A stretch of 43,545 nt of DNA from Pseudovirgaria hyperparasitica (GCA_010093815.1 ML996574.1), one strand, 5' to 3'; shown: positions 13,334-36,266, counted from the stretch's first letter. The notes: generated from the sequence alone by a model not told the origin. Numbers and translations: made by a program.

Positions 13334-13364
13334 TTATTAGTTAAGGGCTGCCCTTAACTAATAA
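13334..13364. repeat. 31-bp palindrome, 3' copy in LINE B
   Basis: TTATTAGTTAAGGGC-T-GCCCTTAACTAATAA, perfect 15-bp arms. Confidence 0.95.
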
Positions 13365-16300
13365 TCGGGGTTCTCCTAGGGTTCTTCCGGTATATATCGG
13401 GTTACTACTAGTATATACCGGGTCTCTTCCGGTATATATTTCCGGGTCCACTAGTACTAGAGGAGTAGTAGATATATAAGTATCTATCGGGAGACGTCCT
13501 TAGGGTACTTATTAAGCTATTATACGATATCTAAAGTCTTTATAACGTAGATAAGCTATTACCGTTATATATAGAGGTTAGGGCATATAGCTAGATAGTA
13601 GCGTATTATACCTCTCCGGCCGTACGCCTTATACTATAGAGAGGTATTAGGAACGCCTCTCTTATAGATATAGTATAGAAGTCCTATAGCGCCCGTTCGG
13701 GCTTAGATAAGTATAGATACTTAGGCTTTCGTTAGCCCTTTATATATCTATTTACTTAGTTCCTTCTATAGCCCTCGAATCTACTCTAGGTACCTATTCT
13801 ACTAGGAGATCTAGTAGGCATAGAGTGCCTCTTTCTACTTATCTTAAGTCCACGACCGTATGTTTTTTATAAGTTCTTAAAGGCTCTACTAGTCTAGGAG
13901 AGCGTCCGGGTTATCTCGGACTTCTTATACTACTTAGCTAGAGTTAGTTTCTATTAAGCACCTATACCGTATTTAATTCCGGCCTATATATAGAAGTGCG
14001 CGGTAATATATACTAATTCGTGCATATAGCGCAGCGAAAGTATATTCTACATTTCCTATACGTTTCTATACTTATTATTTAGTAAAGTATACTACCCTCT
14101 ATATCTAGTAGAAGTTATATATACTTATAACGTCTATCTCGCGTCGTAGTAGTACCGTGTTAGTAGCTTTATATACGCCTAATATAAGACGGAGTATACG
14201 GTTCTATATAGATTCGAGCTTTATTCGCCTAGTCTATATAAGGGCCGTGTACTAGCACTCGTGTCTATACGTGAAGGCGGGTCGTACTATAGATATATAT
14301 AGCTAGTATACCTTATCCCGGGCGGTTCCCCACGTAGAGGCTATAATCCGTTATATAGTAGCTTCTACCTAGAGAGCTCTAGAGACGGTATATACTACTT
14401 ATAGTCTCTATTTAAGCTTACTATCTAGTATAACTCCGAGCGCGCGTATACTTTATACTAGTAGTTCGTTAAACGCGTCGATTCGGGGGCGTTATTCGCC
14501 TTCCCTAGTTACCTATTTCCCTTAATAGTTAATAAAGTATATAAGCTAGTATTTCTCCGGGGCGAACTTTACTCCGTAGCGTTTTACCTACTAGAGGCAC
14601 CTCTCGTGGTTCTATTCTAGTCGTCTATACGTTCGGTTAGTATTATTATTAATAGCTAGGAGGTATATATTATCGGCGTATCCGACTACCTCTATATACT
14701 TTATTCCTTAAAGAAGGTCTACTATAAAGAAGAGGAATAGAATCGGAGAGATAGTACTCCCTTATAGGATGCCGTATACCGTCTCTTTATATTCGCTCTA
14801 GTACCTAGAGATATATATCTAAGTTATTCTTCCTATAAGGAATAACTATATAAAGCGTATAATCTATTCTAGTATTCGTCTTATCCGGAGGTTATAAATA
14901 AGTCTTATATGGTTTACCTTATTAAACGCTCCGGCTATATTAAGGGAGAGGAGCGATACTACCCGTCCCTATTTCTATACGGCCTAGACGACTTTAATAA
15001 TATATTAGATAGCTATTATTAGAGAGCTATCTATCTTTGCCTTCTAGTTCGGAGGGAGGAGATTATATTTCTATACCGCGGTACTTATCTTCTTCGCTAC
15101 CGTAGCCTCTAGTATCTTACCTAGGTAGGAGAGAAGGGTAATTAGTCTCTATCCCTTTAGGGAGTTAGGGCTCTTTCCTAGTTTCGGGAGTATAATAGTA
15201 TAGGCGACTCGGAAGCTCTAGGGGTGGTATCCCTACGTGACGCATGCTTAGAATATATAAGTAATAAGCGGTAGAGTCGCTTTTATAGTACTTTTTAGAT
15301 ATCGATTTAGAATTCCATCTGGTCTAGGTACTTTATTATTTGGGAGTGTCTTAATAATATTAAGTATGTCCTCCTCCGTAACTTCTTTAGGGATATCTAC
15401 CGTATATAGATATTCGGCGCTATGAACGTCTAATAGGTCTACTAGTTCCGGGAGAGAGAACATGGCCTCCTATAGGGCCTTAGTTTTCTTAAGGCTCGTG
15501 GAGTATATTCTTCCCTAATATATTAGGGGAGGCATAAGTGGCGGGGGTGTCGGAGTGTCTACGCCCTTAGCCTATTTCGCTATACGCTATAGCCCTATTA
15601 CGTATCATATCTATTAGCTAGTAATTATACGCTACTATTTATACCTTTCGTTACGGAGGACTTTATCACGTTATTATATCGCTTCCTTCTATTCTTTCTA
15701 CGACTCGGGTATTCTTATATAGTATACGCGTGTGTATAGCCTTCGGGCGTCTTATCTACTTTCCTATACTTAAGGAATCCCCTTTACTTCCGGGGGCCGG
15801 TATATTTAGTATAGTACGTGTTTATTTCTCGCCTTCTAGTATGTTTATAGGAGTATCTATACGGCCTAGTCTATGGCTAGGTCGTTAGATATATCGACTA
15901 TAGAGGGATCTAGGATCGCCGATTCTAGGTCCTTTAGGTACTTTTCCTAGTCGGTGTCCTTCTATATCTATCGTCCCCGTTATTCATTCGGGGTATATAT
16001 GTTTATTACGGTTTCTATGTATTCGTGGTCGGAATCCGTCTATACCTAGCTTAGGCGGTAGTATTAGATTCGGTAACTAATATACTCTATAGCGAAGGTA
16101 AGGTTAAGCGTAGACCCGTCTTCGTCCTATTTATGTTTTTTCTATATAACTTATTCTATAGGTGTAAGTAGATATAGAAAGTCGTGGTAGCGGGTGCGTA
16201 GTTCCCTTACTCTAAGTTCTTCCCTTACTATGGTTAGGCCTCTCTACTATTAGTAGTAGAGGTTAAAGTCTCCTAGGAGGATGTGTTACTCTAGTTCCGT

Positions 16301-18110
16301 AGTACCCTCGAGCATCTTATCTAGTATAAGTATACGTTATTAGTTATATATATTATATATATATAGGGGGCCTATATCTATTTATAGGTGTAGTATTATC
16401 CTAAGGTTATCGCGCTCGGTATACGACCATAATAAGAGTAGTATAGACCTATGAATATGGAAGAGGACTCGTCTTTCTAGTCCTAGAGGGTATATAGTAT
16501 GGTATCCGGGGTATATGGTTGGTTTACTCGTCTGGTAGTGTTTATAGGGTTCCTAGATAGCGAGTATTATGGCCCCGGTCTCTTTAAGGAGCGTCGCCTA
16601 GTTCTCTCTTTTATATTATATATTTACCTATATAATTCGGAGTATATTCTAGTCCCTTATTAGGTACTAGGGAGTATATATACTTATATACTTATTCCTT
16701 AGAGGCGCGACTATCCTTGCGCGGTAGCGGCTTTAACTATGCCTTTTAGTCATCCTATTATCTTTAGAATAGTCTACTATCCCGCCTAACTACCTTCTAG
16801 AGGGGAGGTTAGGGGTATTATAAAGGAAGGGCTTATAGTAGGTATTATATTCTATAACTATCTCGCGCCTCTCGCTTTTATTATACGAATATATTCTATA
16901 ACCTATTTATGTTTTATACACGTTATCGACCACGATAGGTGTTTCCTATCGTAGTTTAAACACTATACTATGTCCCTGTTTCTTGGTCCGTCTCCTCGCA
17001 GTTCATAAGGGCACTCCTAGGTAGCGTGGTCTCTATAGTACTATCCGTACTTAGTCTTCTATAAGTACCTTTATATAGTATATCTATACCCTTAATAGTT
17101 AAAGTACTATATTATTACCTATACCCTATCCCATGGCTCGGCTATAAGGAGCTCTTCTTCTACTAGGAATCCCTCCTATATAATATATTATATAAGGGCG
17201 GGGTCTCGGAGCTCTATAATTATAGTAGAGTATTTTTTCGCCGTTGTCTTAATCGTCTATAGGTTCTTCTACCACGCTTTCACGATCTTAATCCCTAGGT
17301 ATTTTCGCGTGTTAGATTATTCTATACGCGTAATATCCTCCGTACCGATAGCCTATCCCTACACGGGTACTACGTATACTATAATCGGGTATATAGCTAC
17401 CCTAATAGACGCGCTAGGGAAGATACTACCTATCGCGTTCGGATCTCGTAAGATGTTTTACTACGTAGTATTTATTATAGTAGTAAGTACTACTCTACCT
17501 AGCGTAACTTTAGTAGCCACGACGCTTAACTACATTCCTTTCTATTTATTAATCTTATTTATAATTTCCTTTAGGGATGCCTATTAGACCTACGCTAGCG
17601 TGTTCTTATCCTAGATTATAATATATATACTATATACTCTATCTATGGTCCTAGTAGTCCTTAGTGCGGTAGCTCCGGGTATTACTATAATCTAAGCCCA
17701 CGTGTTAGGGCGCTTACCTTAGGATAGCTCTTCCTAGATTCTCCGTAGGCTAGCTTCTATTCGGTCGAGTCTACTACTAGGTTCCTCTCGTAGTAACTTC
17801 CTTTCTTTCTCTATAATTCCTCTTAGGTTCCGGATAAGGTCCCGGAATATATAAAGGAGGGTCTTCTTTCCCTCCTCGGCGTCCCTCTCTATACGTATTA
17901 CCTAGTATTTAATTTTATCTAGGAGGGTCTCCCCTCTCGGGGTCCCCTCAGTCTAGGTTATCTATAGCACTTCGCACCCTTAGTTAGTTCCTATATTTTA
18001 GATAGGTGTCTAGCTATCTATATTAATATCGCTATATAGCCGTTTCTACCGTACTAGTAGGGGTATATCCGGCGTCTACCGGGGTATTACGATGCCTAAG
18101 GCCGCTATAG

Positions 18111-18141
18111 TTATTAGTTAAGGGTAGCCCTTAACTAATAA
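18111..18141. repeat. 31-bp palindrome, 5' copy in LINE B
   Basis: TTATTAGTTAAGGG-TAG-CCCTTAACTAATAA. Confidence 0.95.
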
Positions 18142-21100
18142 AAGGGGGTCGGCGTGTTAGCGTTTATTAGATATGGTCTATGCTTATATTATTAAAGAGT
18201 CTTCGAGTATATATATATAGTATCTCTATACGTCGGTATCGTTACATATTATACGCTATACGTACGCACGTATGTCGGAGGTTATTATACTCGGTATACT
18301 CTATCGTTTAATGTATGTAAATTGCTGTTTTACCCCGAATTAACTAGTTTAGTCCGTTAGGGTGTGAGAAGTTTTTTTTAGAGGAAATATAAATAGAATA
18401 AGAAGGGATCTATACTTAACCTTACCCTTACTATAGAATATATAAGCTATAGAGTATAATACTATTATCTAAGTAAGATATAGATAGACTCTAACTATAA
18501 CTATATAGAGACTATAATAGATATATCTATATCTAATAAATAATAGAGAAGATAGTTCTAGAAAGATACTAACTAGAAGAAATATAGAGAGAATCTAGAA
18601 TTAGTAATTCTAGATTTCTCTATAGTTAATATATCTAATAGTCTAGCTATAGATAGAGCTATATAAGTTCTTCTTTAAGTCTTCTAAGACTTAAGAGATA
18701 AATATATACTATATTAAATATATAAGCCTCTAGATATAAGAGATATATCTTAAATATATAAAAGTAGATAGAAAGCCCGGAGACTATATATATATACTAT
18801 ATCTAGATAGCTAAGGTATAGAAGAAATAGAAAGAGATAATCTAATCTTATAATAGAACCCTCTATAATAAATAATATAAATACTAGTATATAATTACTA
18901 ATAAATATATATAATAAGCTATAGAGCTATAGTATATAGTAAAGTAGACTAAGAGTATAGATATACTAATACTATTACTACTAATACCTCCCCTAATATA
19001 CTAGGAAAGAATATATACTATAAGCCTAGAAAAGATAGAGATTCTATATAAAGTTATATTTCCCTCTCTAGAGCTAGTAGATCTATCTAATATTAATAAT
19101 ACTATATATCTAGATATAGTTAATATCTCTATAGAGATTATAGAAGGGGATATATTTAATACTATTAAAGTACTTCTAAATAATAAAGTATCTAGACTAG
19201 ATAGAATACTAAATAGATACCTTAAATATACTATATAGATAACTCTACTACTTATTAGTCTTATCTTCTAGATATATACTAAGAATAGATACTATCTCTA
19301 AAGTTTCTAGACTATCTATACTATTATACTTATAAAGCTAGAGAAGAATTCTAACTCTCTTAAAGAATAGAGACTAATTACCCTTCTCTTCTATCTTAGT
19401 AAGATACTTAAGACTATAATTATAAAAAGATAAGTATTATAGTATAGAAATATAATCTTCTTCTAGTAAACTAGAAAGTAAAGACTAGAAGCTCTCTAAT
19501 TAGTACTATTTAATATATTCTTAAAGTTATCTAGACTATATAGAAGTAGAGATATATAGTAATACTACTCTCTATTAATATAGCTAGTATATTTAATAAG
19601 ATAAACTATATAAGACTTATCTATAATCTATAGAAGAGATATATATCTAAATAGATTATAAAGTTTATATAGTTCTTTATTACTAAAAGAATTAGCTAGA
19701 TATATATCTCTAGATATTAAAGTAAATATAAGAAGATAATATATAGTATTCTATAAGGAAATACTATCTCCCTAATTCTCTTTATCTTCTTTACTATAGA
19801 TCTTCTATAGAGAATATAATATATAGAGATAGTAGAATATACTAATAATATATACCTTCTAGCTATTAATAATAATACTAGTCTAATATATAAATACCTT
19901 AAATATAATTATAAAAGCTATATCTAGTAGGTAAAATACTATAGAGTAAAGTTTGCCCCTAAGAAATATTAACTTATATACTTTATTAATTACTATAGAA
20001 GATAGACTACTAAGAAAGAAGAGTAATATTCTAGAATAGATACTTTTACTAAGCTACTAATATAGAGTATATATATACTAGATATTATAATTAATAATAA
20101 ACTTAAATAGAGACTATAGATTATATATACTATATCTAGACCCCTTAAGATAGAAACTACTATATATTAGATTATAGTCTCTATATAAAGAACTACCTAG
20201 AATAAGATATACTAGTTATTTATCTCTATAGTATAATCTATCTTTATATATAGATATAAATACTAGTATATAACTCTTATATAGACTAGATAAATAAAGC
20301 TTAAGTCTATATAGAACTATATACTCTATCTTATATCTAGTATATATAAAGCTACTAATATAGTACTACTATAACGTAAGATAAATATAATAAATATATA
20401 GAACTTCTACTAGATATAGAGGGTAATATACTTTACTAAATAATAAGTATAGAAATATATAGAATATATAGAATATACTTTTACTATACTATAAATATAA
20501 GTTAGTATCTATTATTAAGTACTTCTATATATAGACTATACTTATATATAGTATAAGTATCTAATAGAGATAGACTTAAATTAGATTATATAAGAGATTA
20601 AAGATAATCTAGATATCTTTCTAGACTAGTAGAACCCTTAGAAGCTTATATAGACTATGAAATTATAGACCTAGAATAAATAGAGAGAAGCTCTTTAAAT
20701 CTATTAGATATTCTAATAGAAAAGATATCTAGAGTAGATTTAAGAACTATAGAAGGAACTACGTAAATAGATATATAAAGGGCTTATAAAAGCCTAGATA
20801 TCTATTCTCCTCTAAGTCTAAATAGAAGCTATAGAACTTCTATACTATCTATACTAGAGAGGTATTCTAGATATATCTCTATAGTATAAAATATATAGCT
20901 AGAGAGATATAATATAATACTATCTTATAATATACCTAGACCTCTATATATAAAGATAATTACTTATCTATATAATAAGAACCTCTAAAATTACGTGCTA
21001 GCTTAATAAGTACCCTAAGAAGATTACTAGATAGATACTTATATATCTTCTACTTTCTTAATACTAATAGATCTAAATATATATACTAGAAGAAACTAGA

Positions 21101-21153
21101 TATATATTAGATAGACTCTAGTATATACTAGAAGAACTCTAGAAGAACTCTAA

Positions 21154-21184
21154 TTATTAGTTAAGGGTAACCCTTAACTAATAA
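21154..21184. repeat. 31-bp palindrome, 3' copy in LINE A
   Basis: TTATTAGTTAAGGG-TAA-CCCTTAACTAATAA. Confidence 0.95.
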
Positions 21185-21428
21185 CCTCTATACTCTATAT
21201 ATACTATCTAAGAGTAAAATAATAGTACTATAGATTATAGGTCTAGAGGTATTTCTAGTAGCTATATACTTAAGATAATATAAAGACTTAATAAGATATA
21301 GTAGTAGAGTGAAGAGAGTTTTTCCTCTTATAGAGGTTTCTTCTTATATAATAGCTTAGACTAGAGAAGGTATATATCTATAGAGTAGACTACTCTATCT
21401 AGTTATATAATAATAATATTATTATTAT

Positions 21429-23672
21429 TATAGATAGTCTTAGATAATAATCTAAGACTAAGATAGATACTAATAGAGAGAACTAATTATAGATACTTAG
21501 AATAGATATTCTAAGTAGTATACTAAATAATTAGAAATAGAATACTATTATTCTAAGTAGTATACTAGATACTTAGAATAGGTATTCTAATTAGAGAATC
21601 TTAGTAGAACTATATAGACTCTTTAAATCTAATCTCTATAGATAGTTCTATAGTAATTAATTTAAACTTATATTAATATAAGTACTACTTTACTTATCTA
21701 CTAGCTAGTTACTATTTATACTCTATTAATACTTATTATAAAACTACTTATACTTTTCTAAGCCTTCTAAGTATCTTTATCTTTAGAAAAGCTAGAATAC
21801 TTAATATAATAGACTACTTTAGAAATAAGCTATACTCTTACTAGAAAATTTTATTATAGTTTAATTACTCTTACTTAGACTCTAAAGTAGATACTTATAC
21901 TATCTTTATAAATATAAAATAGTAAATAATAGATAGTTTCTATCTTTATAAACTATTCTATAAGCTCTAACTATAGAATAAGTTAAATATCTTATTATAG
22001 AATTAGAGAAGTAAGTTATAGAGCTTTAGAAGAAAAATATTAAACTTAAAAAGACTAAGAAGAACTTTAAAAGAAAAATACTTAAGTCTTTTAAAGGTAA
22101 GTAAAGTAAACTCTAAGAATTTATAATATAGATTAGAATATATTTCTAGATCTATTAAATCTAGAATCTATAGAAGAATAAGTTATATTTACTACTAGAT
22201 TACTAAAGAGAGATATACTTACTTAGTTTAAACTCTACTTAAGAGACTTTATTAAAAGTAACCCTTAGAATTAATAGAATAATACTATTAAGATATTTAA
22301 ATACTTTAAAGAATTTAAGAAATATATTAAGATAATTTTTAGAGATATAGATAAATAAAGAATAGCTAAGAGATAGATTTAGTAAATTATTTAATAAAAT
22401 CTATATCTAACTATATCTCTAAATTCTAATAAATTTCTAGCTAGTTAGACTAGAATAATAAATCTCTAATTCTCTACTTCTATATAGAGCTATATAATAA
22501 TATAAAGAATAAGATCTCTAGAGAAAGAGACTACTCTACTAATCTCTTAGAGTATATTAAGCTTATAGTCTAGATTAATAACTAATTATATAAAAGATAC
22601 TATAAGAAACGAAAGAAAAAGATTTTTTAATCTATACTTAAATAAATATAAGAAAGGGCTACGCTAATTAGACTCTAAACTACTTATATAAGAGATTCTA
22701 TAATAGATCTATACTAATAGAACTTAGTATCTTATAGAAAAACTAGCTATCTAATAAAGAAAGGGAATAACTAAAGAAGAAAGATAAGTATCTCTACTAT
22801 AAGAAAAAGAAATACTATATCTATAAATATCTAAAAAATAAGAATAAGAAAAATTAGATTAAAGATCTAATACTAAGATAAGAAAACTTTATTATAGAAA
22901 AAGAAGAAGTATTCTATATAGCTATATTATAGACTAGTTATACTAATAACCTCTACTTTATATAAAAGCTAGAAATAAATAGAGTAGAATAGTATCTAAA
23001 GAAAAGAGATATTTCAATAGCTAGTAAATAACTCCTTCTACTCTATGAAAAAATAGAACTATAAAAATATCTAGATATAATAAGAAGATCTAGACTAACT
23101 AAAGAAATAATATCTAAAGAAGTAATAGCTAAAGAAAATATTATAGAGAAAGATAGTAAGAAAGAAACCCTTACTACTAAAGAATTATATAATAAGTTAA
23201 TAATAGAATAAAACCCTAGTACTTACTATACTATCTATTATTATAGAAAATATATAGATAAGAATAATAAAGATCTATTCTTAAAAGATATATAGATTTA
23301 ACTAGAAGATAATTAACTTATCTTGTCTTACTAAGAAGAATATAATAAGACCTTCTAGATTATCTATTTATATAATAATTATCTTTAATATCTCTATAAG
23401 AAGTACACCTAGAAATAGTTTCTATAGTAGTACTAGAATTAATTAATTCTAAAAGTATTTAAGAATAAAGATATATAATAGTATAAAATAATCTTAGAAG
23501 AAGCTAATAAAAACTACTTTATATTAAGATAAGTAGAAACTAAGATTTATTAAGAGAACTAATATATCTAATACCTAGATATTATATACCGGATATATCT
23601 AATATCTAAGGCTATTATATAGTATAACCTCTAAGTAGATTTAGATAAAATTAAGAAACAAGTTATAAAAAT
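21429..23672 (+). mobile_element. Gypsy family G2: remainder of the LTR (to ~21740) and gag region, RIP-inactivated and truncated
   Basis: De-RIP capsid motifs (L.GDALAWFEP, IFGD.DE...AE, LDW.D..L...FY.GL), a CCHC knuckle at ~22788-22835 and a second Cys/His motif at ~23341-23425. Confidence 0.8.
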
Positions 23673-24029: not shown

Positions 24030-24060
24030 TTATTAGTTAAGAGTTACCCTTAACTAATAA
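24030..24060. repeat. 31-bp palindrome, 3' copy in LINE C
   Basis: TTATTAGTTAAGAG-TTA-CCCTTAACTAATAA (one G>A in the arm). Confidence 0.92.
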
Positions 24061-25832
24061 TTAGATTTTTCCTAGGGTTCTTCTAGTATATAATAGAGTC
24101 TATCTAGTATATATCTAGTTTCTTCTAGTATATATATCTAGATCTACTAGTATTAAGAGAGTAGAAGATATATAAGTATCTATTAGATAATCTTCTTAGA
24201 GTACTTATTAAGCTAATATATAATATTAGAGATTCTTATTATATAAATAAGTATTTATCTTTATATATAAAGGTCTAGATATATTATAAGATAGTATTAT
24301 ATTATATCTCTCTAGCTATATATTTTATACTATAGAGATATATCTAGAATACCCCTCTAATATAGATAGTATATAAGTTCTATAGCTTCTATTTAGACTT
24401 AGAGAAGAATAGATATCTAGACTTTTATAAGCTCTTTATATATCTATTTACTTAGTTTCTTCTATAGTTCTTAAATCTACTCTAGATATCTATTCTATTA
24501 GAATATCTAATAGACTTAGAGAGTCTCTCTCTATTTATTCTAGATCTATAATTATATAGTCTATATAAGCTTCTAAGAATTCTACTAGTCTAGAGAGATA
24601 TCTAGATTATCTCTAATTTCTTATATAATATAATTTTAGTCTATCTCTATTAGATACTTATATTATAGTTAAGTTTAGTCTATATATAGTAGTACTTAAT
24701 AGTAGATACTAACTTATATATAAAGTATAATAAAAGTATATTCTATATATTCTATATATTTCTATACTTATTATTTAATAAAGTATATTACTCTCTATAT
24801 CTAGTAGAAGTTCTATATATTTATTATATTTATCTTATATTATAGTAGTACTATATTAATAGCTTTATATATACTAGATATAAAATAGAGTATATAGTTC
24901 TATATAGACTTAAGCTTTATTTATCTAGTCTATATAAGAGTTATATACTAGTATTTATATCTATATATAAAGATAGATTATACTATAGAGATAAATAACT
25001 AGTATATCTTATTCTAGGTAGTTCTTTATATAGAGACTATAATCTAATATATAGTAGTTTCTATCTTAAGGGGTCTAGATATAGTATATATAATCTATAG
25101 TCTCTATTTAAGTTTATTATTAATTATAATATCTAGTATATATATACTCTATATTAGTAGCTTAGTAAAAGTATCTATTCTAGAATATTACTCTTTTTTC
25201 TTAGTAGTCTATCTTCTATAGTAGTTAATAAAGTATATAAATTAGTATTTCTTAGTAGTAAACTTTACTCTATAGTACTTTATCTACTAGATATATCTCT
25301 TATAGTCTTATTTAAGATATTTATATATTAGATTAGTATTATTATTAATAGCTAGAAGATATATAGTATTAGTATATTCTACTATCTCTATATATTATAT
25401 TCTTTATAGAAGGTCTATAGTAAAGAAAAGAAAGAGAATTAGAGAGATAGGATTTTCTTATAGAATACTATATATTAATTTTTTATATTTACTTTAATAT
25501 CTAGAGATATATATATTTAGATAATTCTTTTAGTAAGAAAGAACTATATAAACTTTATAATCTATTTAGAAAGTCTAACTATACTTATAAGACTAAAAGG
25601 AACTTCTTATACTCTAACGGACCAAACTAGTTAATTCGGGGTAAAACAGCGATTTACATACATTAAACGATAGAGTATACCGAGTATAATAACCTCCAAC
25701 ACACGTGCGTACGTATAGCGTATAATACGCGACGATACTAACATATAGAGATACTATATATATACGCTCGAAGACTCTTCGATAATATAAGTATAGACTA
25801 TATCTAATAAACGCTAACACGCCGACCCCCTT

Positions 25833-25863
25833 TTATTAGTTAAGGGCTACCCTTAACTAATAA
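25833..25863. repeat. 31-bp palindrome, 5' copy in LINE D
   Basis: TTATTAGTTAAGGG-CTA-CCCTTAACTAATAA. Confidence 0.95.
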
Positions 25864-27282
25864 CTATAGCGGCCTTAGGCATTATAATACCCCGGTATAC
25901 GCCGGATATACCCCTACTAGTACGGTAGAAACGGCTATATAGCGATATTAATATAGATAGCTAGACACCTATCTAAAATATAGGAACTAACTAAGGGTAT
26001 AAAGCGCTATAGATAATCTAGACTAAGGGGACCCTAAGAGGGGAGACCCTCCTAGATAAAATTAAATACTAGATAATACGTATAGAGAGGGACGCCGAGA
26101 AGGAAAAGAAAACCCTCCTTTATATATTCTAGGACCTTATCTAGAACCTAAGAGGAATCATAGAGAAAGAAAGAAAGTCGCTATAAGAGGAATCTAGTAG
26201 TAGACTTAACTAAATAGAAGCCAGCCTACGGAGAATCTAGAAAGAGCTATTCTAAGGTAAGCGCCCTAACACGTAGGCTTAGATTATAGTAATACCTAGA
26301 GCTACTATACTAAGAACCACTAGGACTATAGATAGAGTATATAGTATACGTATTATAATCTAGGATAAGAATACACTGGCGTAGGTCTAACGGGCATCCC
26401 TAAAGGAAATTATAAATAAGATTAATAAATAGAAAGGAATATAGTCGAGCGTCGTGGCTACTAAAGTTACGCTAGATAGGGTAGTACTTACTACTATAAT
26501 AAATACTACGTAGTAAAACATCTCACGAGATCCGAACGTAATAGGTAGTATCTTCCCCGGCGCGTCTATTAGGGTAGCTATATACCCGATTATAGTATAT
26601 ATAGTACCTATACGGGGATAGGCTATTAGAGCGGAGGATATTACGCGTATAGAATAATCCAACACGCGAAAATACCTAGGGATTAAGATCGTAAAAGCGT
26701 GGTAGAAGAACCTATAGGCGATTAAGACGACGGCGAAAAAACACTCTACTATAATTATAGAGCTCCGAGACCCCACCCTTATATAATATATTATATAGGA
26801 GGGATTCCTAATAGAAGGAGAGCTCCTTATAGCCGAGCCATAGAATAGGGCATAGATAATAACATAGTACTTTAACTATTAAGGGTATAGATATACTATA
26901 TAAAGGTACTTATAGAAGACTAAGTGCGGATAGTACTATAGGGACTACGCCATCTAGAAGTGCCCTTATAAACCGCGAGGAGACGGACTAAGAAACAGGG
27001 ATATAGTATAGTATTTAAACTACGACGGGAAACATCTATTATAGTCGTCAACGTATATAAAACGTAAATAGGTTATAGAATATATTCGCACGATAAAAGC
27101 GAGAGGCGCGAGATAGTTATAGAATATAATATCTACCACGAGCCCTTTCTTTATAATATCTCTAACCTCCCCTCCGGAAGGTAGTTAGGCGGGATAGTAG
27201 ACTATTCTAAAGATAATAGGATAACTAAAAGGTATAGTTAAAGCCGCTACCGCGTGAGGATAGTCGCGCCTCCAAGGAATAA
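25860..27282 (+). pseudogene. LINE ORF1 (gag-like; coiled coil and CCHC knuckles), disrupted by RIP stop codons
   Basis: De-RIP reading GETLLDKIKY...LDRIEASLRRIQEEL...KRPNTWAQI, and a CFNCQGYGH-type knuckle at ~26868-26895. Boundaries are approximate. Confidence 0.7.
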
Positions 27283-27313
27283 GCATGTAGATATATATAC
27301 TCCCTAGTATCTA

Positions 27314-30300
27314 ATAAGAGACTAGAATATACTCCGAATTATATAGGTAAACGTATAATATAAAAGAGAGAACTAGGCGACGCTCCTCGAAGAGACTAGG
27401 GCTATAATACTTACTATCTAGGAACCCTATAAATACTACTAGACGAGTAAACTAACCATACACCCTAGATACCATACTATATACCCTCTAAGACTAGAAA
27501 GACGAGTCCTCTTCCATATTTATAGGTTAATACTACTCTTATTATAGTCGTACACTAAGCGCGATAACCTTAGGATAATACTACACCTATAAATAGATAT
27601 AGGCCCCCTATATATATATAATATATATAACTAATAACGTGTACTTATACTAGACGAGATACTTAAGGGTACTACGGAACTAGGGTAATATATCCTCCTA
27701 GGAGACTTTAACCTCTACTACTAATAGTAGGGAGGCCTAGCCGTGGTTAGGGAAGAACTTAGAGTAAGGGAACTACGCACCCGCTACTACGACTTCCTAT
27801 ATCTACTTACACCTATAGAATAAGTTATATAGAAAAAATATAAATAGGACGAAGACGGGTCCACGCTTAATCTTACCTTCGCTACGGAGTATATTAGTCA
27901 CCGGATCTAATACTACCGCCTAGGCTAGGTATAGACGGATTCCGACTATAAATATATAGAAACCGTAATAAATGTATATACCCCGAATAAATAACGGGGA
28001 CGATAGATATAGAAGGACACCGACTAGGAAAAGTACCTAAAGGACCTAGAATCGGCGATTCTAGATCCCTCTATAGTCGATATATCTAATAACCTAGCTA
28101 TAGACTAGGCCGTATAGATACTCCTATAAATATACTAGAATACGAGAAATAAACACGTACTATACTAAATATACCGGCCCCCGGAAGCAAAGAGGATTCC
28201 TTAAGTACGGGAAAGTAGATAAGACGCCCAAAGGCTATATAGACGTGTATACCGTACGAGAATACCTAAGTCATAGAAAGAATAGAAGGAAGTAATATAA
28301 TAACGCGATAAAGTTCTCCGTAACGAAAGGTATAAATAGTAGTATATAATTACTAGTTAATAGACACGATATATAATAGGGCTATAGCGCATGGCGAAAT
28401 AGGCTAAGGGCGTAGATACTCCGATACCCCTACCACTTATACCTCCCCTAATATATTAGGGGAGAATATACTCTACGGGCCTTAAGAAAACTAAGGCCCT
28501 ACGGGAGGCCATGTTCCCTCTCCCGGAACTAGTAGACCTATTAGATATTTACGGCGCCGAATATCTATACGCGGTAGACATCCCCGAAGAAGTTATAGAG
28601 GAGGATATACTTAATATTATTAAGATACTCCTAAATAATAAAGCACCCGGACTAGATGGAATTCTAAATCGATACCTAAAAAGCACTATAAAAGCGACCC
28701 TACTACTTATTACTTATATATTCTAAGTATACGTTACGTAAGGGTACCACCCCTAGAGCTTCCGAGTCATCTATACTATTATACTCCCGAAGCTAGAAAA
28801 GAGCCCTAACTCCCTAAAGGGATAGAGACTAATCGCCCTTCTCTCCTACCTAGATAAGATACTAGAGGCCACGATAGCGAAGAAGATAAGTACCGCGGTA
28901 TAGGAATATAATCTCCTCCCTCCGAACTAGAAGGCAAAGGTAGATAGCTCCCTAATAATAGCTATCTAATATATTATTAAAGTTATCTAGGCCGCATAGA
29001 AATAGGGACGGGTAGTATTACTCCTCTCCCTTAATATAGCCGGAGCGTTTAATAAGGTAAACTATATAAGACTTATTCATAACCTCCGGATAAGACGAAT
29101 ACTAGAATAGATTATACGCTTTATATAGTTATTCCTTATAGGAAGAATAACTTAGATATATATCCCTAGGTACTAGAGCGAATATAAAGAAACGGTATAC
29201 GGCATCCTATAAGGGAGTACTATCTCTCCAATCCTATTCCTCTTCTTTATAGTAGACCTTCTTTAAGAAATAAAGTATATAGAGGTAGTCGGATACGCCG
29301 ATAATATATATCTCCTAGCTATTAATAATAATACTAACTAAATATATAGATAACTAGAATAGGACTACGAGAGGTATCTCTAGTAGGTAAAACGCTACGG
29401 AGTAAAGTTCGCCCCGGAGAAATACTAGCTTATATACTTTATTAATCGTTAAGGGAAATAGGTAACTAGGGAAGGCGAACGACGCCCCCGAATTAACGTA
29501 TTTAATAAACTACTAGTATAAAGTATATACGCGCTCGGAGTTATACTAGATAGTAAGCTTAAATAGGGACTATAAGTAGTATATACCGTCTCTAGGGCCC
29601 TCTAGATAGAAGCCGCTATATAACGGATTATAGCCTCTATATAGGGAACCGCCCGGGATAAGACACGCTAGCTATATATATCTATAGCACGACCCGCCTT
29701 CACGTACGGATACGAGTACTAGTATACGGCCCTTATATAGACTAGGTAAATAAAGCTCGAATCCATATAGAACTATATACTCCGTCTTATATTAGGCGTA
29801 TATAAAGCTACTAACACGGTACTACTATAACGCGAGATAGACGTTATAAGTATATATAACTTCTACTAGATATAGAGGGTGGTATACTTTACTAAATAAT
29901 AAGTATAGGAACGTATAGAAAACGTAGAATATACTTTTACCGTGCTACGTGTACGAATTAGTATATATTACCACGCACTTCTATATATAGGCTAGAATCG
30001 AATACGGTATAGATACTTAATAGAAGCCGACTCTAGCTAAATAGTATAAGAAGTCCGAGATAACCCGGACGCTCTCCTAGACTAGTAGAGCCTTTAAGAA
30101 CTTATAAAAAATATATAGTCGTGGACTTAAGATAAGTAGAAAGAGATACTCTATACCTACTAGACCTTCTAGTAGAATAGGTATCTAGAGTAGATTCGAG
30201 GGCCATAGAAGGAACTAAGTAAATAGATATATAAAGGGCTAACGAAAGCCTAAGTATCTATACTTATCTAAGCCCGAACGGGCGCTATAGAACTTCTATA

Positions 30301-30640
30301 CTATATCTATAAGAGAGGCGTTCCTAATACCTCTCTATAGTATAAGGCGTATAGCCGGAGAGGTATAATACGCCACTATCTAGCTATATACCCTAACCTC
30401 TATATATAATAGTAATAGCTTATCTATGTTATAAAGACTTTAGATATTATATAATAGCTTAATAAGTACCCTAAGGACGTCTCCCGATAGATACTTATAT
30501 ATCTACTACTCCTCTAGTACTAGTAGACCCGGAAATATATACTAGAAGAGACCCGGTATACGCCGGTAGTAACCCGATATATACCGGAAGAACCCCGGGA
30601 GAACCCCGATTATTAGTTAAGGATAGCCCTTAACTAATAA
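27314..30640 (+). pseudogene. LINE ORF2 (APE endonuclease, reverse transcriptase, C-terminal CCHC; no RNase H recognised), disrupted by RIP
   Basis: ILRI.QVNV and AIQEP at the start, LLGDFNL (~27695), DSDH (~27938), KAPGLDGI (track ORF 28511-28726), RPIALLS.LGK.LE (~28825), GIPQGS.ISPILF (~29201), GYADD (29291-29305) and QARTGAIG (~30268). Confidence 0.85.
30610..30640. repeat. 31-bp palindrome, 3' copy in LINE D
   Basis: TTATTAGTTAAGGA-TAG-CCCTTAACTAATAA (one G>A in the arm). Confidence 0.92.
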
Positions 30641-31446
30641 CCTCCGTACCTATACGTGCTACCTAAGGGTAAAATAATAGCAATATAGGCTATAGACTAA
30701 TAGGCGTACCCTATAGCTATATACTTAAGACGAAATAGAGGTTTAACAAGATATAGTTATAGATATAAGGAAGTTTTTCCCTATGGGGTTTCTTCTTATA
30801 TAGTGGCTTAGACTAGAGAAGGTATAGGCCTATAGAGTGCTACTCTACCTAGTTATATAATATTATTATTATTATTATTATAATCTATTTAGATATATAT
30901 CTCTTCTATAGATTATAGATAAGTCTTATATAGTTTACCTTATTAAATATACTAGCTATATTAAGAGAGAGTAGTATTACTATATATCTCTACTTCTATA
31001 TAGTCTAGATAGTAAAAGAATATACTAAAGTTACTAGAGTTAGAATAATATTATAGATACTAAACTACTAAGAGAATATATATAATAGCTATAAAAAAGA
31101 AAGAATACTTTACTAATTAAGTAGTACTCTAGTAAGAGATAAGTAGAGAGAGAGTAATATTAAGAGTAAACTCTAGTTATACTTAATACTAGTATATCTA
31201 TATCTATAATAATAATAATAATAATATTAGTAAACTAGGTAGAGTACCACTCTATAGGCGCATGCCTCCTCTAGTCTAAGCTACTATATAAGAAGAAACC
31301 TATAAATAGGAAAAACTCCCTTATATCCATGACTACGCTCTGTCTATCCTCTCGTTCTTTTATATATATAGCCCTAGGGGCTACCTATAGGCCTATAGCC
31401 TATATTATAATAGTTTGCCCTTAGGTAGCACGTGTAGATGCGGAGA

Positions 31447-31477
31447 TTATTAGTTAAGGGCTACCCTTAACTAATAA
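31447..31477. repeat. 31-bp palindrome, 3' copy in LINE E
   Basis: TTATTAGTTAAGGG-CTA-CCCTTAACTAATAA. Confidence 0.95.
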
Positions 31478-34400
31478 TCGCGGTTCTCCCGGGGTTCTTC
31501 CGACGTATACCGGGGTTCTTCTAGTATATATTAGGCTTCTTCCGGCATATATACGCGGGTCCACTAGAACTAGGGGAGAGGAAGGTATACGAGCATCTAT
31601 CGGGCGACGTCCTTAGAGTACTTATTAAGCTATCGCGTAATATCGGAGGTCCTTATTATACGGACGAGGGCTTATCTTAGGGTATAGAGGCTAGAGCATA
31701 TCGCGAGATAGTAGCATATTATGCCTCTCCGGCCGCAGTCCTCGCACTAGGGAGATACATCTAGAACGCCTCTCTAGTAGAGGTAATATAGGAGACCTAT
31801 AGCGCCTATTCGGGCTTAGAGGAGTATAGATGCTTAGGCCTTCGTTAGCCCTTTATATATCTATTTACTTAGTTCCTTCTAAGGCCCTCGGATCTATTCT
31901 AGATACCTATTCTATTAGGAGGCCCACTAGGCTTTAAGTACCTCCCTCTATTTATCCTAGATCCACGACCGTATAACGCGGCTAAGCTCCTTAGGGCTCT
32001 ATTGGCTCGGGACGGTATCCGGGTTATTTTAAACCTCCTACGCGGTCTAGCTCGAGTCCGCCTCTATATAGTATTTATATTATACTCGAGTTTATTCTAT
32101 AGTAGGGAGGGCCTAGTAATACGCGCGGATATATATACGTAGTACGGCGAAGGTATATACCCTATCTCCTCTACGTTCTTATACTTATTATTTAGTAAAG
32201 TATATAAGTCTCTATATCTAGTAGAAGTCCTATATACTCGTTATATTTATCTCGCGTTAGAGGAGCGTCGTGTTAGTAGCTTTATATATACCGGAGATAA
32301 GGCGGAGTATACGGTTTTATATAGACTTAAGCTTTACCCGCCAAGCTTATATAAGGGCCGTGTACTAGTACTCGTGTCCGTATATAAAGGCTAGGCGTAC
32401 TAGAGAGACGTATAGCTATCTCGCCTTATCCCGGGCTATTCCCTACGTGGATACCGTAATCCGGCGTATAGCGGTTTCTACCTAGAGGGCTCTAGAGACG
32501 GCGTGTGCCATCTATAGTCCCTATTTTAGCTTATTATCGATCATGACGCCGAGTGCTCGTATACTCTATACTAGTAGTTCTATGAAGGCGTCGATTTAGG
32601 GGCGACGTGCCCTCTCCCTAGTAGCCTATCCTCCATAGCGGTTAATAAAGTATATAAGCTAGTATTTTTTAGGTGCGAATTTTACTCCGTGGCGCTTTAC
32701 CTACTAGATGTATTTCTCGTGGTCTCGTTCGAGTCGTATATATGTTCTACTAGTACTACTATCGACCGTAAGGAGGTATATATCGTCCGCGTATCCGACT
32801 ACCTCTATATATTCCATTCCCTAAAGAAGGTCTACTATAAAGAAGAGGAAGAGAATCGGGGAGATGGTACTCCCTTACGGGATGCCGTATGCCGTCTCCT
32901 TATATTCGCTTCGGTATCTAGAGATATATATTTAAGTAGTCCTTTACGCGAGGAAGGACTATATAAATCGTGTAATCTACTTAGGTATTCGCCTTATCCG
33001 GAGGTTATAGATAAGTCTTATATAGTTTACCTTATTAAACGCCCCTACTATGTCTAGAGAGAGTAGCGTAACGACTCGTCCTTATTTCTATATAGTCTAG
33101 ATAACCTTAAGGATATGTTAAATGGCTATAATTAGGGAGCTTCCTACCTTCGCCTTCTAGTTTACTAGAAGAAGGCCGTGTACCTATACTACTATACTTA
33201 TCTTCTAGATAATCGTGGCTTCTAGTACCTTACTAAGGTAGAAGAGGAGGGCGATCGGCCTCCATCCCTTCGGCGTGTTTAGGCTCTTCCCTAGTTTTAG
33301 GAGTATAACCGTATATATAGTTCGGAAGCTCTATGGGTAGTATCCTATACAGGCGCACGCTCGGAATATATAGCCTATAATTAGTAAGGTCGCCTATATA
33401 GTCCTCTTAAGATATCGATTTAGAATTCCGTCTAGCCCGGGCGCTTTATCGTTCGGGAGTATCTTAATAGCGCCGAGTATATCGTCGTCTATGATTTCCC
33501 TAGAGATACTCACGGCTTCCGGGTATTCCGTACCGTTAATATCTAATAGGTCTACGGGTTCTAGAAGAGGGAACATAACCTCTTATAGAATCTCTATTTT
33601 CTCGAGGCTTATAGAGTACGTCTTTTCTTAATATATAAGGGGGGGTATAAGTGGTGTAGGTGTCGGGGAGGCGGTGCTTTTAGCCTATTTTACTATATAC
33701 CATAGTCTAGTAGTATTACGTGTGTATCTATCCGTAACTATACGCTACTATTTACGTCGCTCGTTACGGAGGACCTTATCTCGTTATCTTCTCGCCTCTC
33801 TCTATTTATCCCACGCTTTAGATATACGGTTATAGTATACGCGTCTATATAATCTCCGGACTTCTCGCCTATACTCTCGCACTTAAGGTATACTTTTCGG
33901 GTCTAGGGGTCTATATATTTAGTATGGCACGTATTTATCTCTTGCTCCCTAGTACGCCTATAGGAGTATATTCACGGCCTGGTCGATAGCCGGGCCATTA
34001 GATACGTCGACTATAGACGGGTCTAGGATCGTCGATTCTAGGTCCTTTAGATACTTTTCCTAGTTAGTATCCTTCTATAGCTATCGCCCTCGTTAGTCTT
34101 AAGGGGTGGATATATCTATTATAGTCTCTATGTATTCGTGGTCGGAGTCTATCTATATAAGGCTTAGGCGGTAGTATTAAGTTCTATTATAAATGTGTCT
34201 AGTGGCTAGGGTAAGGTCGAGTATAGATCCGCCCTTATCTTATTTATGTTTTCGCTAGGTAATCTATTCTACTAGTATAAGAAGGTATAGGAAGCCGTGG
34301 TATTAGGTGCGTAGTTCTCTAGCTCGAAGCTCTTCGCGGGTAACGGTTAGTCTACTCTACTAGCTATAATAGAGGTTGAAGTCTCCTAGGAGGATGTATT

Positions 34401-36235
34401 ATCCTAGCTCGGTAGTACCCTTAAGTATGTTATCCGCCTAAAGCGATCGGTTCTAATTATATATATTATATATATAGAGGGGTCCGATATTTATCTAGAG
34501 GTGTAGTATTATCCGGAGGTTATCCCGTTTAGTATACGACTATAATAAGAGTAGAATAGACTTATAGACATGGAAGAGGACTCTCCTCTCCGGTCCTAGG
34601 GGGTATATTATATAATATTCTAGGTGTGTTATTAGTTTATTCGTCTAGTAGTGTTTATATAGCTCCTATATAGTAAGTATTATAGCTCCGGTCTCCTCGA
34701 GGAGTATCGCCTAGTTCTTACGTTTATACTATATGTTTACCTATATAATTAGGAGTATATCTTGGTCTCTCATTGGGTGCTAGAGAATATATAGACCTAT
34801 ATATTCGTTCCTCTAAGACGCGACTATCCTCGTACGGCGGCGGCCTTAGTAATTCCTTGGGGCCGTTCTATTATTAGCTTTCTCGGGACGGTTTACCATT
34901 CCTAACCGCTTCCTTATAAGGAGGTAGTCTATAGTAGTAGTGTTATAGTAAAGAGAGGAACGGTAGTAGGTCGCATCGTTTATAGCTACCTTGCTCCCTT
35001 TATCTAGATTAAGTAGATATATTTAGTAATCTATTTGCGTTTCGTGCACGTAGCCGACTACGACGGGTGCTTACCGTCGTAGTTAGAGTACTTCACCGTG
35101 TCCCTATCTCTCTAGCCCTCTTCTCGTGTCCTATAGGGGCACTCCTAGGTACTATGTTCTTATTAATACTATCTATACCTAGTCTTTTAGGAGCACCGCT
35201 ATACCGTGTACCCGTATCCCTAATAGTTAAAGTACTATGTTATCGCCTATGCTCTATCCCATGGTTCCGCTATAAGAAGCTCCCCTTCCGCTAGGAATCT
35301 CTCTTATATAATTTAATACGCGAGGGCGGGGTCCTTAAGCTCTACTATTATAGTAGAGTATGCCTTCGATCTAGTTTTAATCCCTTATATATTCTTCTAC
35401 CATGCTCTTACGATCTTAATTTCTAGGTATTTTTACTCGTTTAACTATTCTATCCGCGTGATGTCCTCTTCTCTAATAACCTATCCGCTTATAGATATAG
35501 AGTATACCTATATCGGGTATATGGCCGCCCTAATAGAGGCGCCTAGAAAGATACTACTAATCGCGTTTGGATCGCGCGAGATAGTCTACTACGTAATATT
35601 TATTATTATGGTAAGTACTACTCCTCCTAGTGTAAGTTTAGTAGTAAACATATTTAACTATATTCCCTTTTATTTATTAATCTTACTTACTATATCCTTT
35701 AGGGATGCTTACTAGACCTATACTAGGGTGTTCTTATCCTAGATTATAACGCGTATACTATACGCCGCGTCGCCGGTCCGGGGGGCCCGTAGTATAGCCT
35801 CCGGTATTACTACTATTTATACCTATATACTAGGGCGCTTACCTTAAGTAAGTTCCTCCTAGATTCTACGTAGGCTAGCCTCTATTCGGTTAAGCCTACC
35901 CTCCGGTCCTCCTAGTTATATCTTCTTCTTCTTCTCCGTAATTCCCTTTAGATTCCGGATAAGGTCCTAGAATATATATAGAAGGGTCTTCTAACCCTCT
36001 CCGGCTTCCTTCTCTATACGTGCTACCTAGTAGTCGATATAATCTAGAAGGGTTTCCCCTCTTAGGGTCCCCTTTATTCCGTCTATCTATAGCGGCGTGC
36101 GCCTTTAGGTGTGTTCTATATTTTAGATAGGTATATGGTTACCCTTAGTAATATCGCTATATGGCCTTTTCTATCGTACCGGTAGGGGTATATCCGGTAT
36201 ATACCGGGGTATATCGGTGCCTAAGGCCGCTATAT

Positions 36236-36266
36236 TTATTAGTTAAGGGCTGCCCTTAACTAATAA
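36236..36266. repeat. 31-bp palindrome, 5' copy in LINE E
   Basis: TTATTAGTTAAGGGC-T-GCCCTTAACTAATAA, perfect 15-bp arms. Confidence 0.95.

Follow-up and report, generated by a model that had tools for sequence, protein, structure and literature searches.

Outside a few model elements the untranslated regions of LINEs are little understood, and both the translation of their open reading frames and the recognition of their own RNA by the encoded proteins are open questions. Flavivirus genomes and Ty1 RNA carry 5'-3' cyclisation sequences, complementary words near both RNA ends; we know of none in LINEs. For the stop-start coupling of SART1, the work reportedly cited is that of Kojima 2005. In those passages of the SART1 report that deal with it, this coupling combines the word UAAUG with a nearby downstream RNA structure (PMC3894237), and a UAAUG stop-start is also described, in the corresponding part of another account, for the hypovirus CHV1 of a fungal host (PMC2699510). 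TRE5-A (DRE) of Dictyostelium discoideum has, according to the portion of its description drawn on here, a 290-bp B-module that holds the ORF1 start and is repeated after ORF2 (AB-ORF1/ORF2-BC), the 3' B-module seeming dispensable because TRE5-B and TRE5-C are without one (PMC3159450). The same portion cites stringent-type LINEs (UnaL2, R2 and, with its C-module, TRE5-A) as having a reverse transcriptase (RT) that recognises stem-loops of the 3' UTR (cited in PMC3159450).

In the window (the whole 43.5-kb stretch of DNA analysed), the 31-nt palindrome TTATTAGTTAAGGGC-W-GCCCTTAACTAATAA occurs eight times, always inside copies of one RIP-degraded non-LTR retrotransposon. Three of the five copies are full length: D (25593..30884, plus strand; 5292 bp, heavily RIPped, delimited by self-BLAST and ORF frames), B (13094..18379, minus strand; delimited by self-BLAST and a 13-bp duplication) and E (31193..36503, minus strand; 5311 bp), which belongs to a diverged subfamily and is the least RIPped copy. 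B is inserted into A/C, a 5'-truncated copy on the plus strand whose left part (12075..13093) aligns to D 26829-27843 and whose right part (18380..21432), with the 3' palindrome and tail, aligns to D 27830-30882. The 13-bp target-site duplication of B, AGAGGAAATATAA, stands on the plus strand at 13081..13093 and 18380..18392; these are its two exact matches in the window, a number that 0 of 100 shuffles reach. The remaining copy, C2 (23786..25566, minus strand), shares 93% identity by self-BLAST with the 3' portion of A/C and is likewise 5'-truncated, so that both retain only the 3' palindrome. Identity reaches 91.8% between B and D and ~73% between E and either of them, with 7.9% transversions, while A/C and C2 match the remaining copies at 68-74%. 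The LINE 3' ends carry (ATT)n tails and the outer flanks are mutually unrelated, that is, without LTRs.

The identification of the element as a LINE in the first-pass annotation was borne out at the protein level: the frame of copy E that starts at 36501 contains RVT_1 (E = 1.8e-16; 60.9 bits, cut-off 29.6), and the best ORF2 relative, P0011, matches with E = 3.5e-143 over 1035 residues. Upstream of the RT in copy E, Exo_endo_phos_2 scores just below its cut-off in RIP-damaged sequence (25.7 against 27.4 bits; E = 1.1e-5). Distant ORF2 relatives from a word search carry PF03372/PF14529, and some carry PF00075; an RNase H domain was not detected in copy E. Among 1.84 billion representatives, the best ORF2 match is only 30% identical and no un-RIPped member of this LINE family was found, and a P0011-based search of metagenome contigs for related loci gave 52 pattern matches, none of them confirmed. 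The RT and EN domains, target duplication, 5' truncation, simple-repeat tail and absence of LTRs identify the element as an APE-type non-LTR retrotransposon; its CCHC ORF1 and TAA-type tail resemble those of the Tad1 or I clade, to which it may belong. From the duplication around B, its nesting in A/C and the truncated copies, the transposing unit is the whole 5.29-kb element, outer flanks beyond the palindromes included.

The eight palindromes start at 13334, 18111, 21154, 24030, 25833, 30610, 31447 and 36236, as originally listed; low-complexity AT runs excepted, no perfect palindrome in the window is longer. The degenerate motif of the first-pass annotation gave seven matches at up to two mismatches (0 of 100 shuffles contained any match), and relaxing its centre gave eight, the gain being the 3' palindrome of C2 (24030..24060), with three RIP-type changes in its centre. 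All copy-to-copy differences outside the central W are indeed C>T or G>A, and all are confined to the central GGGCWGCCC. The arms are identical in all eight copies, variation occurring only where RIP targets remain; they thus offer no covariation by which the compensatory arm changes suggested as a check could be judged. Nor was the motif found in other sequence contexts, a further point raised at the outset: all 16 matches to the 13-nt arm at up to one mismatch in the 43.5-kb window fall within the eight palindromes (0.82 matches expected by chance), and native, pre-RIP and intermediate forms of the degenerate motif had no matches in metagenome, prokaryote-genome and viral contigs, collections that hold little fungal DNA. 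Rfam gave no matches at E <= 1 over 12000-37000, and no description of the motif, or of such a palindrome or hairpin in a LINE, was found in open-access full text.

This distribution bears on two further ideas, that the word is a site of recombination or that a very small palindrome, mobile on its own, inserted into the element on two occasions. Identical 31-nt words within one element could support deletion or inversion, and one sequencing run (X2) contains a loose end with different sequence ahead of the palindrome (two contigs); but with the arm restricted, within the window, to the LINE copies and no matches in the three collections, with no target duplications or other direct repeats around the palindromes and with no inverted or deleted derivative among the five copies, we regard either origin as highly improbable. 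A MITE or foldback insertion was rejected because the palindrome has no target-site duplication of its own and its arm, in the window, occurs only within LINE copies.

In the full-length copies the palindromes occupy element positions 241-271 and 5018-5048 of 5292 (B and D) or 238-268 and 5027-5057 of 5311 (E). They lie 237-254 bp from the element ends, in agreement with the 235-270 bp first estimated, and the 3' palindrome ends 244 nt (B, D) or 254 nt (E) before the element's 3' end. As the first-pass annotation proposed, the two palindromes bracket the ORF1-ORF2 coding block. Between them, the indels that separate E from D are 3, 9 and 6 nt long, all multiples of three, whereas those outside are 1, 1, 1 and 2 nt long, plus 3-nt gaps at the element ends and position 19. 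An excess of transversions at third codon positions spans ~450 to ~4900 of the element, and codon-position bias is absent from the 240-nt leader (10/13/7) and the 3' trailer (9/7/3). In the last 30 codons of the ORF2 frame, searched from past the last residues that align to P0011, no stop is common to B, D and E before the TAG at positions 5-7 of the 3' palindrome, which in D (30610..30640) falls at 30614-30616. P0011, the nearest un-RIPped relative, has the C-terminus DKVYDE, unlike every reading of the palindrome, and the pair may therefore be peculiar to this LINE family.

The 5' palindrome closes all three reading frames. In the first 150 nt beyond it the three codon positions show no bias (3/7/2, n=12); the start of ORF1 may therefore lie further in, and its N-terminus is without an anchor because a read-through search found no ORF1 homologue. 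An 86-codon open frame from the 5' end of E to the palindrome was rejected as coding: it has no codon-position bias and contains a 1-nt indel between E and D, and with eight stops over the three leader frames one stop-free frame is not unusual.

Although the first-pass annotation noted that LINEs normally have no terminal repeats, a repeat of this kind is already described for TRE5-A, where, in the portion of the description drawn on here, the module at the ORF1 translation start recurs after ORF2, inside the outermost UTR modules, as at this locus (PMC3159450). The TRE5-A module is a plain direct repeat of 290 bp, whereas the repeat at this locus spans 31 nt (no more than 41 nt), has perfect dyad symmetry and takes in the ORF2 stop, in another host and LINE lineage. 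The shared layout favours a past duplication that in itself does little or nothing, in which a 31-41 nt module was copied between coding boundaries, for instance when the reverse transcriptase switched templates, and the likeness was kept by one functional copy or by gene conversion. Also in keeping with such a copy, direct similarity of the 5' and 3' palindromes reaches slightly beyond the symmetric word (41 nt at 83% identity). Beyond this their flanks show neither extended similarity nor complementarity above shuffles, which upholds the original description of the flanks as unrelated apart from two small exceptions, a GA.CCCC stretch of 7-9 nt immediately upstream of the palindromes and a 15-nt word, CCCGGTATACGCCGG, seen in D.

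The central base provides one further trace, since the symmetry leaves the orientation of the pair readable only there. On the coding strand, the 5' palindrome has T in D (25833..25863, with G17>A) and in B (18111..18141; assigned by motif search, position in the element and folding) and A in E (36236..36266, where the arms reach 16 nt). The 3' palindrome has A in D, in B (13334..13364; motif search and folding, centre unmutated) and in E (31447..31477). The two are therefore in the same orientation in E and in opposite orientations in B and D, which fits occasional conversion or flipping. Against a functionless duplicate stands the retention of both palindromes in all three full-length copies (two subfamilies) and of the 3' one in both truncated copies of the third subfamily (in A/C at 21154..21184, by motif search), with 0 transversions in 2 x 30 nt of arm in a comparison of subfamilies whose overall transversion level is 7.9%; a neutral copy in a UTR where transversions or indels reach 10-15% should have decayed. 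We consider a bare historical duplication unlikely. The conservation is nevertheless only moderately above background and not exceptional by itself: between E and B/D, 12.5% of 31-nt windows over the whole element, and 4.9% of UTR windows, contain no transversion or indel. Measured against these two sets of windows, the joint chance of transversion-free arms is ~0.04 and ~0.005, respectively. The blocks adjoining both palindromes are also conserved, the 3' palindrome lying within a 68-nt transversion-free run. The earlier statement that the word is conserved across three diverged subfamilies holds for its presence in all three, but is weaker as evidence because these windows are equally clean.

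How the word was spelled before RIP is harder to read. In the three full-length copies, 78 codons of the ORF2 frame are stops in every copy, indicating that RIP is near saturation; a TA found in every copy is then uninformative on ancestry and the present spelling may well be post-RIP. The family thus offers a warning for the reading of RIPped repeats: here a TA shared by all copies is often itself produced by RIP, and a consensus alone does not reveal the ancestral motif. By our count there are 27 symmetric ancestral options (three mirrored TA pairs, each TA, CA/TG or TG/CA), of which the form proposed in the first-pass annotation, TCATTGGTCAAGGGCWGCCCTTGACCAATGA, is one. Variants were taken from those listed for four sequencing runs (X1-X4), none of them listed as RNA, with contigs compared to copy E. 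In the 3' palindrome of E they include A>G at 31463 and, by T>C at 31455, a GTCAAGG variant (TCAAGG site) that makes up 0.7% of word depth in X1 and is the main contig in X3. GTCAAGG is the only part of TCATTGGTCAAGGGCWGCCCTTGACCAATGA with direct run support; a pre-RIP form differing from today's spelling is plausible, and the proposed spelling as a whole is one option among many. Where contigs of X3 and X4 cover the 5' palindrome, they depart from E at only 3 of 53 positions, but these copies are also RIPped, and their near-identity to E does not date the spelling. The idea that the X3 copies are less RIPped was rejected, since their 15 X3-supported differences from E at 31786-31897 comprise 5 C/G, 7 T/A and 3 transversions. 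In-frame TGA was unusable as a marker of the native stop, with only 1-7 left per copy.

The word at the junction between ORF1 and ORF2 can be compared among the full-length copies. In E (34770..34776, minus strand) it reads CCAATGA, in which overlapping start and stop codons (ATGA) place the ATG in the ORF2 frame and the TGA in the ORF1 frame; in B (16657..16663, minus strand) and D (27311..27317, plus strand) it reads CTAATAA, in B by RIP. The contrast between TCATTGG in E and TTATTAG in B, drawn from the complementary strand in the first-pass annotation, is thus correct. In the sequencing runs the E junction carries the RIP letters in 92% (34771) and 100% (34775) of word depth. The palindrome, too, ends in CTAATAA, and its codon register there agrees with that of this RIPped ORF2 start word; the heptamer occurs 6-7 times per element on the coding strand of B and D, three of these at the boundary sites. 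The ATGA overlap at the palindromes themselves is hypothetical, being present only in the first-pass reconstruction. The ORF1 ATG derived from it has the shared heptamer and register in its favour, but an equally good start for ORF1 would be the ATA that follows 3 nt after the palindrome, or one beyond it, and codon bias begins only at ~450.

Another possibility is that the palindrome is a DNA site for a dimeric protein, for example two inverted CCAAT boxes before RIP, which might serve internal sense transcription from the 5' copy and an antisense promoter in the 3' copy. The perfect dyad symmetry would suit such a site, the change of CCAAT in E to CTAAT in B and D at the ORF2 start means that the CTAAT found in the arms of all eight palindromes could derive from CCAAT, and a weak antisense promoter in the 3' C-module is mentioned in the TRE5-A passages (PMC3159450). 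Weighing against it, CCAAT is present in the arms of none of the eight copies and absent among the 40 run-variant rows listed out of 452, and the 5' site would lie ~240 bp downstream of the presumed transcript start. We consider such a dimeric-protein site distinctly unlikely. The word reads alike on both strands, however, so that binding of a protein to the DNA would account for the observations just as well as the RNA reading that follows.

We tentatively favour a different reading, in which selection maintains the palindrome as an integral cis element of this LINE family, one copy at the start and one at the end of the coding block, that probably acts in the transcript. Each copy would fold as a 13-16 bp stem-loop, or, the word being self-complementary, the 5' and 3' copies could instead pair with each other over 31 nt. 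Six folds gave predicted hairpins with energies between -14.3 and -21.4 kcal/mol (z between -3.3 and -6.4), and for each of them 0 of 200 shuffles attained that stability; values for the 5' and 3' palindromes of D are -16.6 (z = -3.3) and -14.3 kcal/mol (z = -5.3), and for the 5' palindrome of E -18.5 kcal/mol. The 31-nt 5'-3' duplex is predicted at -42.2 to -49.7 kcal/mol against -30.9 to -39.9 kcal/mol for both hairpins together, a gain of 10-11 kcal/mol. Complementary words near both ends recall the cyclisation sequences of flaviviruses and Ty1; unlike those, each LINE word is also self-complementary, so that local hairpins would compete with a long-range pairing that is here predicted only. 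A conserved stem-loop, likewise predicted here, in the 3' part of a LINE transcript is shared with the stringent LINEs, but their stem-loop, in the passage citing them, stands beside the 3' tail (cited in PMC3159450); here it stands 244-254 nt upstream, on the ORF2 stop and with a 5' twin, and not directly upstream of the tail as a stem-loop for RT recognition would.

The palindrome pair may serve as boundary signals for translating a two-gene RNA. The 5' palindrome ends at, or at most 3 nt from, the likeliest ORF1 start, the 3' palindrome probably carries the ORF2 stop, and their final heptamer is the word of the ORF1-stop/ORF2-start overlap, of the AUGA type used in termination-reinitiation. 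As in the parts of the SART1 and CHV1 accounts cited above, the ORF1 stop overlaps the ORF2 start (AUGA in E), and the same word may end the palindromes; unlike SART1, where the structure lies downstream of the word, the structure here would lie upstream, and coupling is read from the sequence arrangement alone (PMC3894237, PMC2699510). We infer the action as RNA, the role in translation and the pre-RIP spelling alike, and several observations sit poorly with this reading: a stable stem reaching up to a start codon is likelier to impede scanning than to aid it, bias is lacking just inside the 5' palindrome, P0011 ends differently and the arms offer no covariation. Binding of the element's zinc-knuckle ORF1 protein to the palindrome would fit the data equally well.

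Carried further, CCAAUGA would mark three ORF boundaries (leader/ORF1 start, ORF1 stop/ORF2 start and ORF2 stop), the outer two lying in 31-nt modules that pair 5'-3' and loop the coding block, so that ribosomes or new ORF2 protein could be handed from the 3' boundary back to the 5' one. We think this extended scheme quite improbable; if true, it would also allow chained termination-reinitiation from read-through host transcripts, and such a device for cyclisation and translation coupling is not known for any LINE. A perfectly symmetric word that borders the coding block on either side, and that three subfamilies and most of thousands of copies retain, provides a compact, mutable handle that could serve tests of translation control, RNA cyclisation or ORF1-protein binding in a fungal LINE. 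In the 3' palindrome of E, two additional flanking base pairs extend the symmetry to 35 nt, interrupted only beside the centre, and the predicted hairpin reaches -21.4 kcal/mol (z = -6.4).

The 31-nt palindrome TTATTAGTTAAGGGC-W-GCCCTTAACTAATAA occurs eight times in the window, with starts at 13334, 18111, 21154, 24030, 25833, 30610, 31447 and 36236, as the first-pass annotation had claimed. The motif proposed there recovered seven palindromes at ≤2 mismatches, with any match in 0 of 100 shuffles, and relaxing its centre gained the eighth, at 24030. All 16 matches to the 13-nt arm (≤1 mismatch; 0.82 expected) fall within these eight palindromes, which, low-complexity AT runs excepted, are the longest perfect palindromes of the window. 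Departures from the consensus are solely C>T or G>A, again as claimed for the non-central bases, and are confined to the central GGGCWGCCC. Read on the coding strand, each of the five 3' palindromes (those near the ORF2 end of a LINE copy) has A at its centre, and the 5' palindromes (near the ORF1 start) have T there in copies B and D and A in copy E. The pair is real, family-specific and conserved, and it lies at the edges of the coding region in a dead LINE.

Self-comparison of the window delimited the full-length copies D (25593-30884, + strand), B (13094-18379, - strand) and E (31193-36503, - strand), a 5'-truncated copy, A/C, which B's insertion divided into 12075-13093 and 18380-21432, and a second truncated copy, C2 (23786-25566). 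Because an exact 13-bp target duplication, AGAGGAAATATAA, flanks B (13081-13093 and 18380-18392), the transposing unit is the whole 5.29 kb, including the ~240 bp beyond each palindrome; B sits cleanly nested within an older 5'-truncated copy of another subfamily. Read-through translation of E gives RVT_1 (60.9 bits) and, in the same frame, an endonuclease domain just below the cut-off (25.7 bits), with a CCHC-knuckle ORF1 in a different frame. The best relative of ORF2 among 1.84 billion representative proteins is the un-RIPped P0011 (E = 3.5e-143, 30% identity, 1035 residues). The 3' ends carry (ATT)n tails, and by these sequence features the palindrome-bearing element is an APE-type LINE. 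The tails of B, D and E are plain (ATT)n, in contrast to those of A/C and C2 (21406-21432; 23782-23811), which are (TAA)n then (TTA)n and themselves palindromic.

All LINE copies are heavily RIPped (TpA/ApT 1.67-1.71; (CA+TG)/(AC+GT) 0.17-0.27), with 418 transitions and 19 transversions separating B from D. Since E differs from B and D by 7.9% transversions, it is, as judged from divergence, a truly separate subfamily. RIP is near saturation: 78 codons of the ORF2 frame are stops in B, D and E alike, and the E frame has 94 stops in 1084 codons, where P0011 holds 87 Q+W residues; among the 88 E stops aligned to a P0011 residue, 16 lie opposite W, 13 opposite Q and 12 opposite R. A TA common to every copy is therefore no evidence of an ancestral TA. 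In agreement with this, at the ORF2 start in sequencing run X1, E's C at 34771 reads T in 92% of word depth (14 contigs) and its G at 34775 reads A in 100% (18 contigs).

Within the available resolution, the palindromes bracket the coding block. Between them, E and D differ by indels of 3, 9 and 6 nt, and outside them by indels of 1, 1, 1 and 2 nt, besides 3-nt gaps at both element ends and position 19. Inter-subfamily transversions concentrate at third codon positions from element position ~450 to ~4900 (by codon position, e.g., 29/6/56 and 16/7/52 in ORF2 and 14/9/30 in ORF1), with no third-position excess in the leader (10/13/7) or 3' trailer (9/7/3). Past the last residues aligned to P0011 (...RWT), the ORF2 frame runs for 28-30 codons before a stop common to B, D and E, a TAG at 3' palindrome positions 5-7; positions 26-31 read TAA TAA in the same frame. 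Whichever the pre-RIP spelling was, the ORF2 stop falls within the 3' palindrome. At the other boundary, the ORF1 frame runs through the 5' palindrome to a stop at palindrome positions 22-24 and continues CTA ATA A(C/A)T ATA GCG GCC. ATA codons that could derive from the ORF1 ATG occur at element positions 268 (within the palindrome), 274 (3 nt beyond it), 295, 316 and others further on; the first 150 nt past the palindrome have no codon bias in transversions (3/7/2), and a search for an ORF1 homologue to anchor the N-terminus found none. The anatomy given in the first-pass annotation is right; its choice for the ORF1 start, position 268, is one of several candidates.

The junction between the ORFs (E 34770-34776; B 16657-16663; D 27311-27317) bears on the ancestral spelling. 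As had been noticed for E against B, E retains the un-RIPped CCAATGA, in which ATG in the ORF2 frame overlaps TGA in the ORF1 frame, whereas B and D have CTAATAA, the ATGA being RIPped to ATAA. This heptamer is also the right end of the palindrome, where its codon register matches that at the junction, both for the start of ORF1 and for the stop of ORF2; CTAATAA occurs only 6-7 times per element on the coding strand of B and D, the three boundary sites included. By chance such a match would be expected at roughly one in a thousand specified positions, uncorrected for post-hoc noticing. The junction word lends indirect support to a terminal CCAATGA in the palindrome, and near-saturating RIP makes it plausible that the arms arose by RIP. 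A binding site in DNA for a dimeric factor, a CCAAT dyad for instance, would draw on the same spelling and symmetry; we consider it improbable. When sequencing runs were compared with E at 80% likeness (X1, 14137 pieces), two of the 40 variants listed fell in the 3' palindrome of E: A>G at 31463, the un-RIPped centre (20% of word depth, 34 contigs), and T>C at 31455, giving GTCAAGG (0.7% of X1 depth, 8 contigs; also X3's main contig). Its mirror, position 31469, had no variant among those 40, beyond which a further 412 rows were recorded. GTCAAGG is thus direct evidence for one site. The proposed reconstruction is plausible, but the full form is one of 27 symmetric options by our count, since each of three mirrored TA pairs could take three states, and that it is exactly right is doubtful.

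The arms have no transversions between subfamilies. Equally clean 31-nt windows make up 12.5% of all element windows and 4.9% of UTR windows, for a joint probability for both palindromes of ~0.04 when all element windows serve as background and ~0.005 when UTR windows do. Blocks adjoining the palindromes are also conserved, the 3' palindrome lying within a 68-nt transversion-free run. Together these point to selection on the palindrome regions, yet not uniquely on the palindromes. The 5' and 3' flanks, said to be unrelated, have no other likeness but do share a short GA.CCCC stretch upstream and, in D, the word CCCGGTATACGCCGG, 28 nt inward of the 5' palindrome and 35 nt inward of the 3' palindrome. 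With every arm match in the window inside the LINE copies, a recombination site or mobile mini-palindrome is a most improbable reading. Just before each 3' palindrome (D 30520-30609 and homologous stretches) stand three to four tandem ~22-nt units, ACCCGGTATATACCGGAAGA-like, which in translation give TRYIPEE-like repeats at the C-terminus of ORF2; the related CCCGGTATACGCCGG word after the 5' palindrome, at 25891-25905, reads PRYTP in the same frame.

As RNA, each palindrome is predicted to form a stem of 13-16 bp closed by a loop of 3-5 nt, at energies of -14.3 to -21.4 kcal/mol (z = -3.3 to -6.4); for each of six hairpin folds 0 of 200 shuffles were as stable. The predicted 5'-3' duplex reaches -42.2 to -49.7 kcal/mol, where both hairpins summed give -30.9 to -39.9; at its centre the two bases can pair in B and D and clash in E. 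Rfam had no match in 12000-37000. The data establish position, symmetry, conservation and folding potential; we tentatively favour a role in the transcript, as a cis element where translation starts and stops. The palindromes would act either as two hairpins or as a 5'-3' duplex, linked to how starts and stops are used and perhaps bound by the zinc-knuckle ORF1 protein.

No description of this palindrome element was found in the open-access literature searched, but the earlier claim that nothing like it is known is undercut by Dictyostelium TRE5-A. According to PMC3159450, TRE5-A has the layout AB-ORF1/ORF2-BC, and its 290-bp B-module sets the ORF1 start and recurs after ORF2, the 3' copy being apparently dispensable because TRE5-B and TRE5-C lack it. 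The B-module differs in size and has no dyad symmetry. A similar historical duplication here, with one working copy at most, is unlikely. The AUGA junction, known here from sequence, appears an ordinary member of the stop-start kind described for SART1 (UAAUG, with RNA structure nearby; PMC3894237) and suggested for a fungal hypovirus (PMC2699510).

Elsewhere, the longest stop-free frames of the RIPped copies (132-162 codons; 26387-26875, -; 17099-17587, +; 35317-35715, +) lie antisense to ORF1 and occupy matching element positions in B, D and E; with 3-4 stops per 173 codons in one antisense register and 25-26 in another, they look like a side effect of an A-rich sense strand, not a gene. An island of normal GC (0.44-0.50) holds an intact 452-codon frame with a G-patch_2 domain (9253-10611, -; E = 1.5e-21), a normal gene surrounded by RIPped repeats. 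Two 4.35-kb copies of a RIPped LTR-type retroelement (2984-7334 and 37058-41407; RVT_1 and RT_RNaseH), 94% identical and inverted to each other, lie on either side of the LINE cluster, and neither has a palindrome arm at ≤1 mismatch. Finally, the 3' part of A/C (19646-21428) recurs inverted as C2 (23786-25570, 93% identity), and sequence adjoining the 3' end of A/C (21404-22284) recurs left of the cluster at 11003-11879 (84% identity), which suggests that a segment was duplicated locally or that a host repeat is shared.
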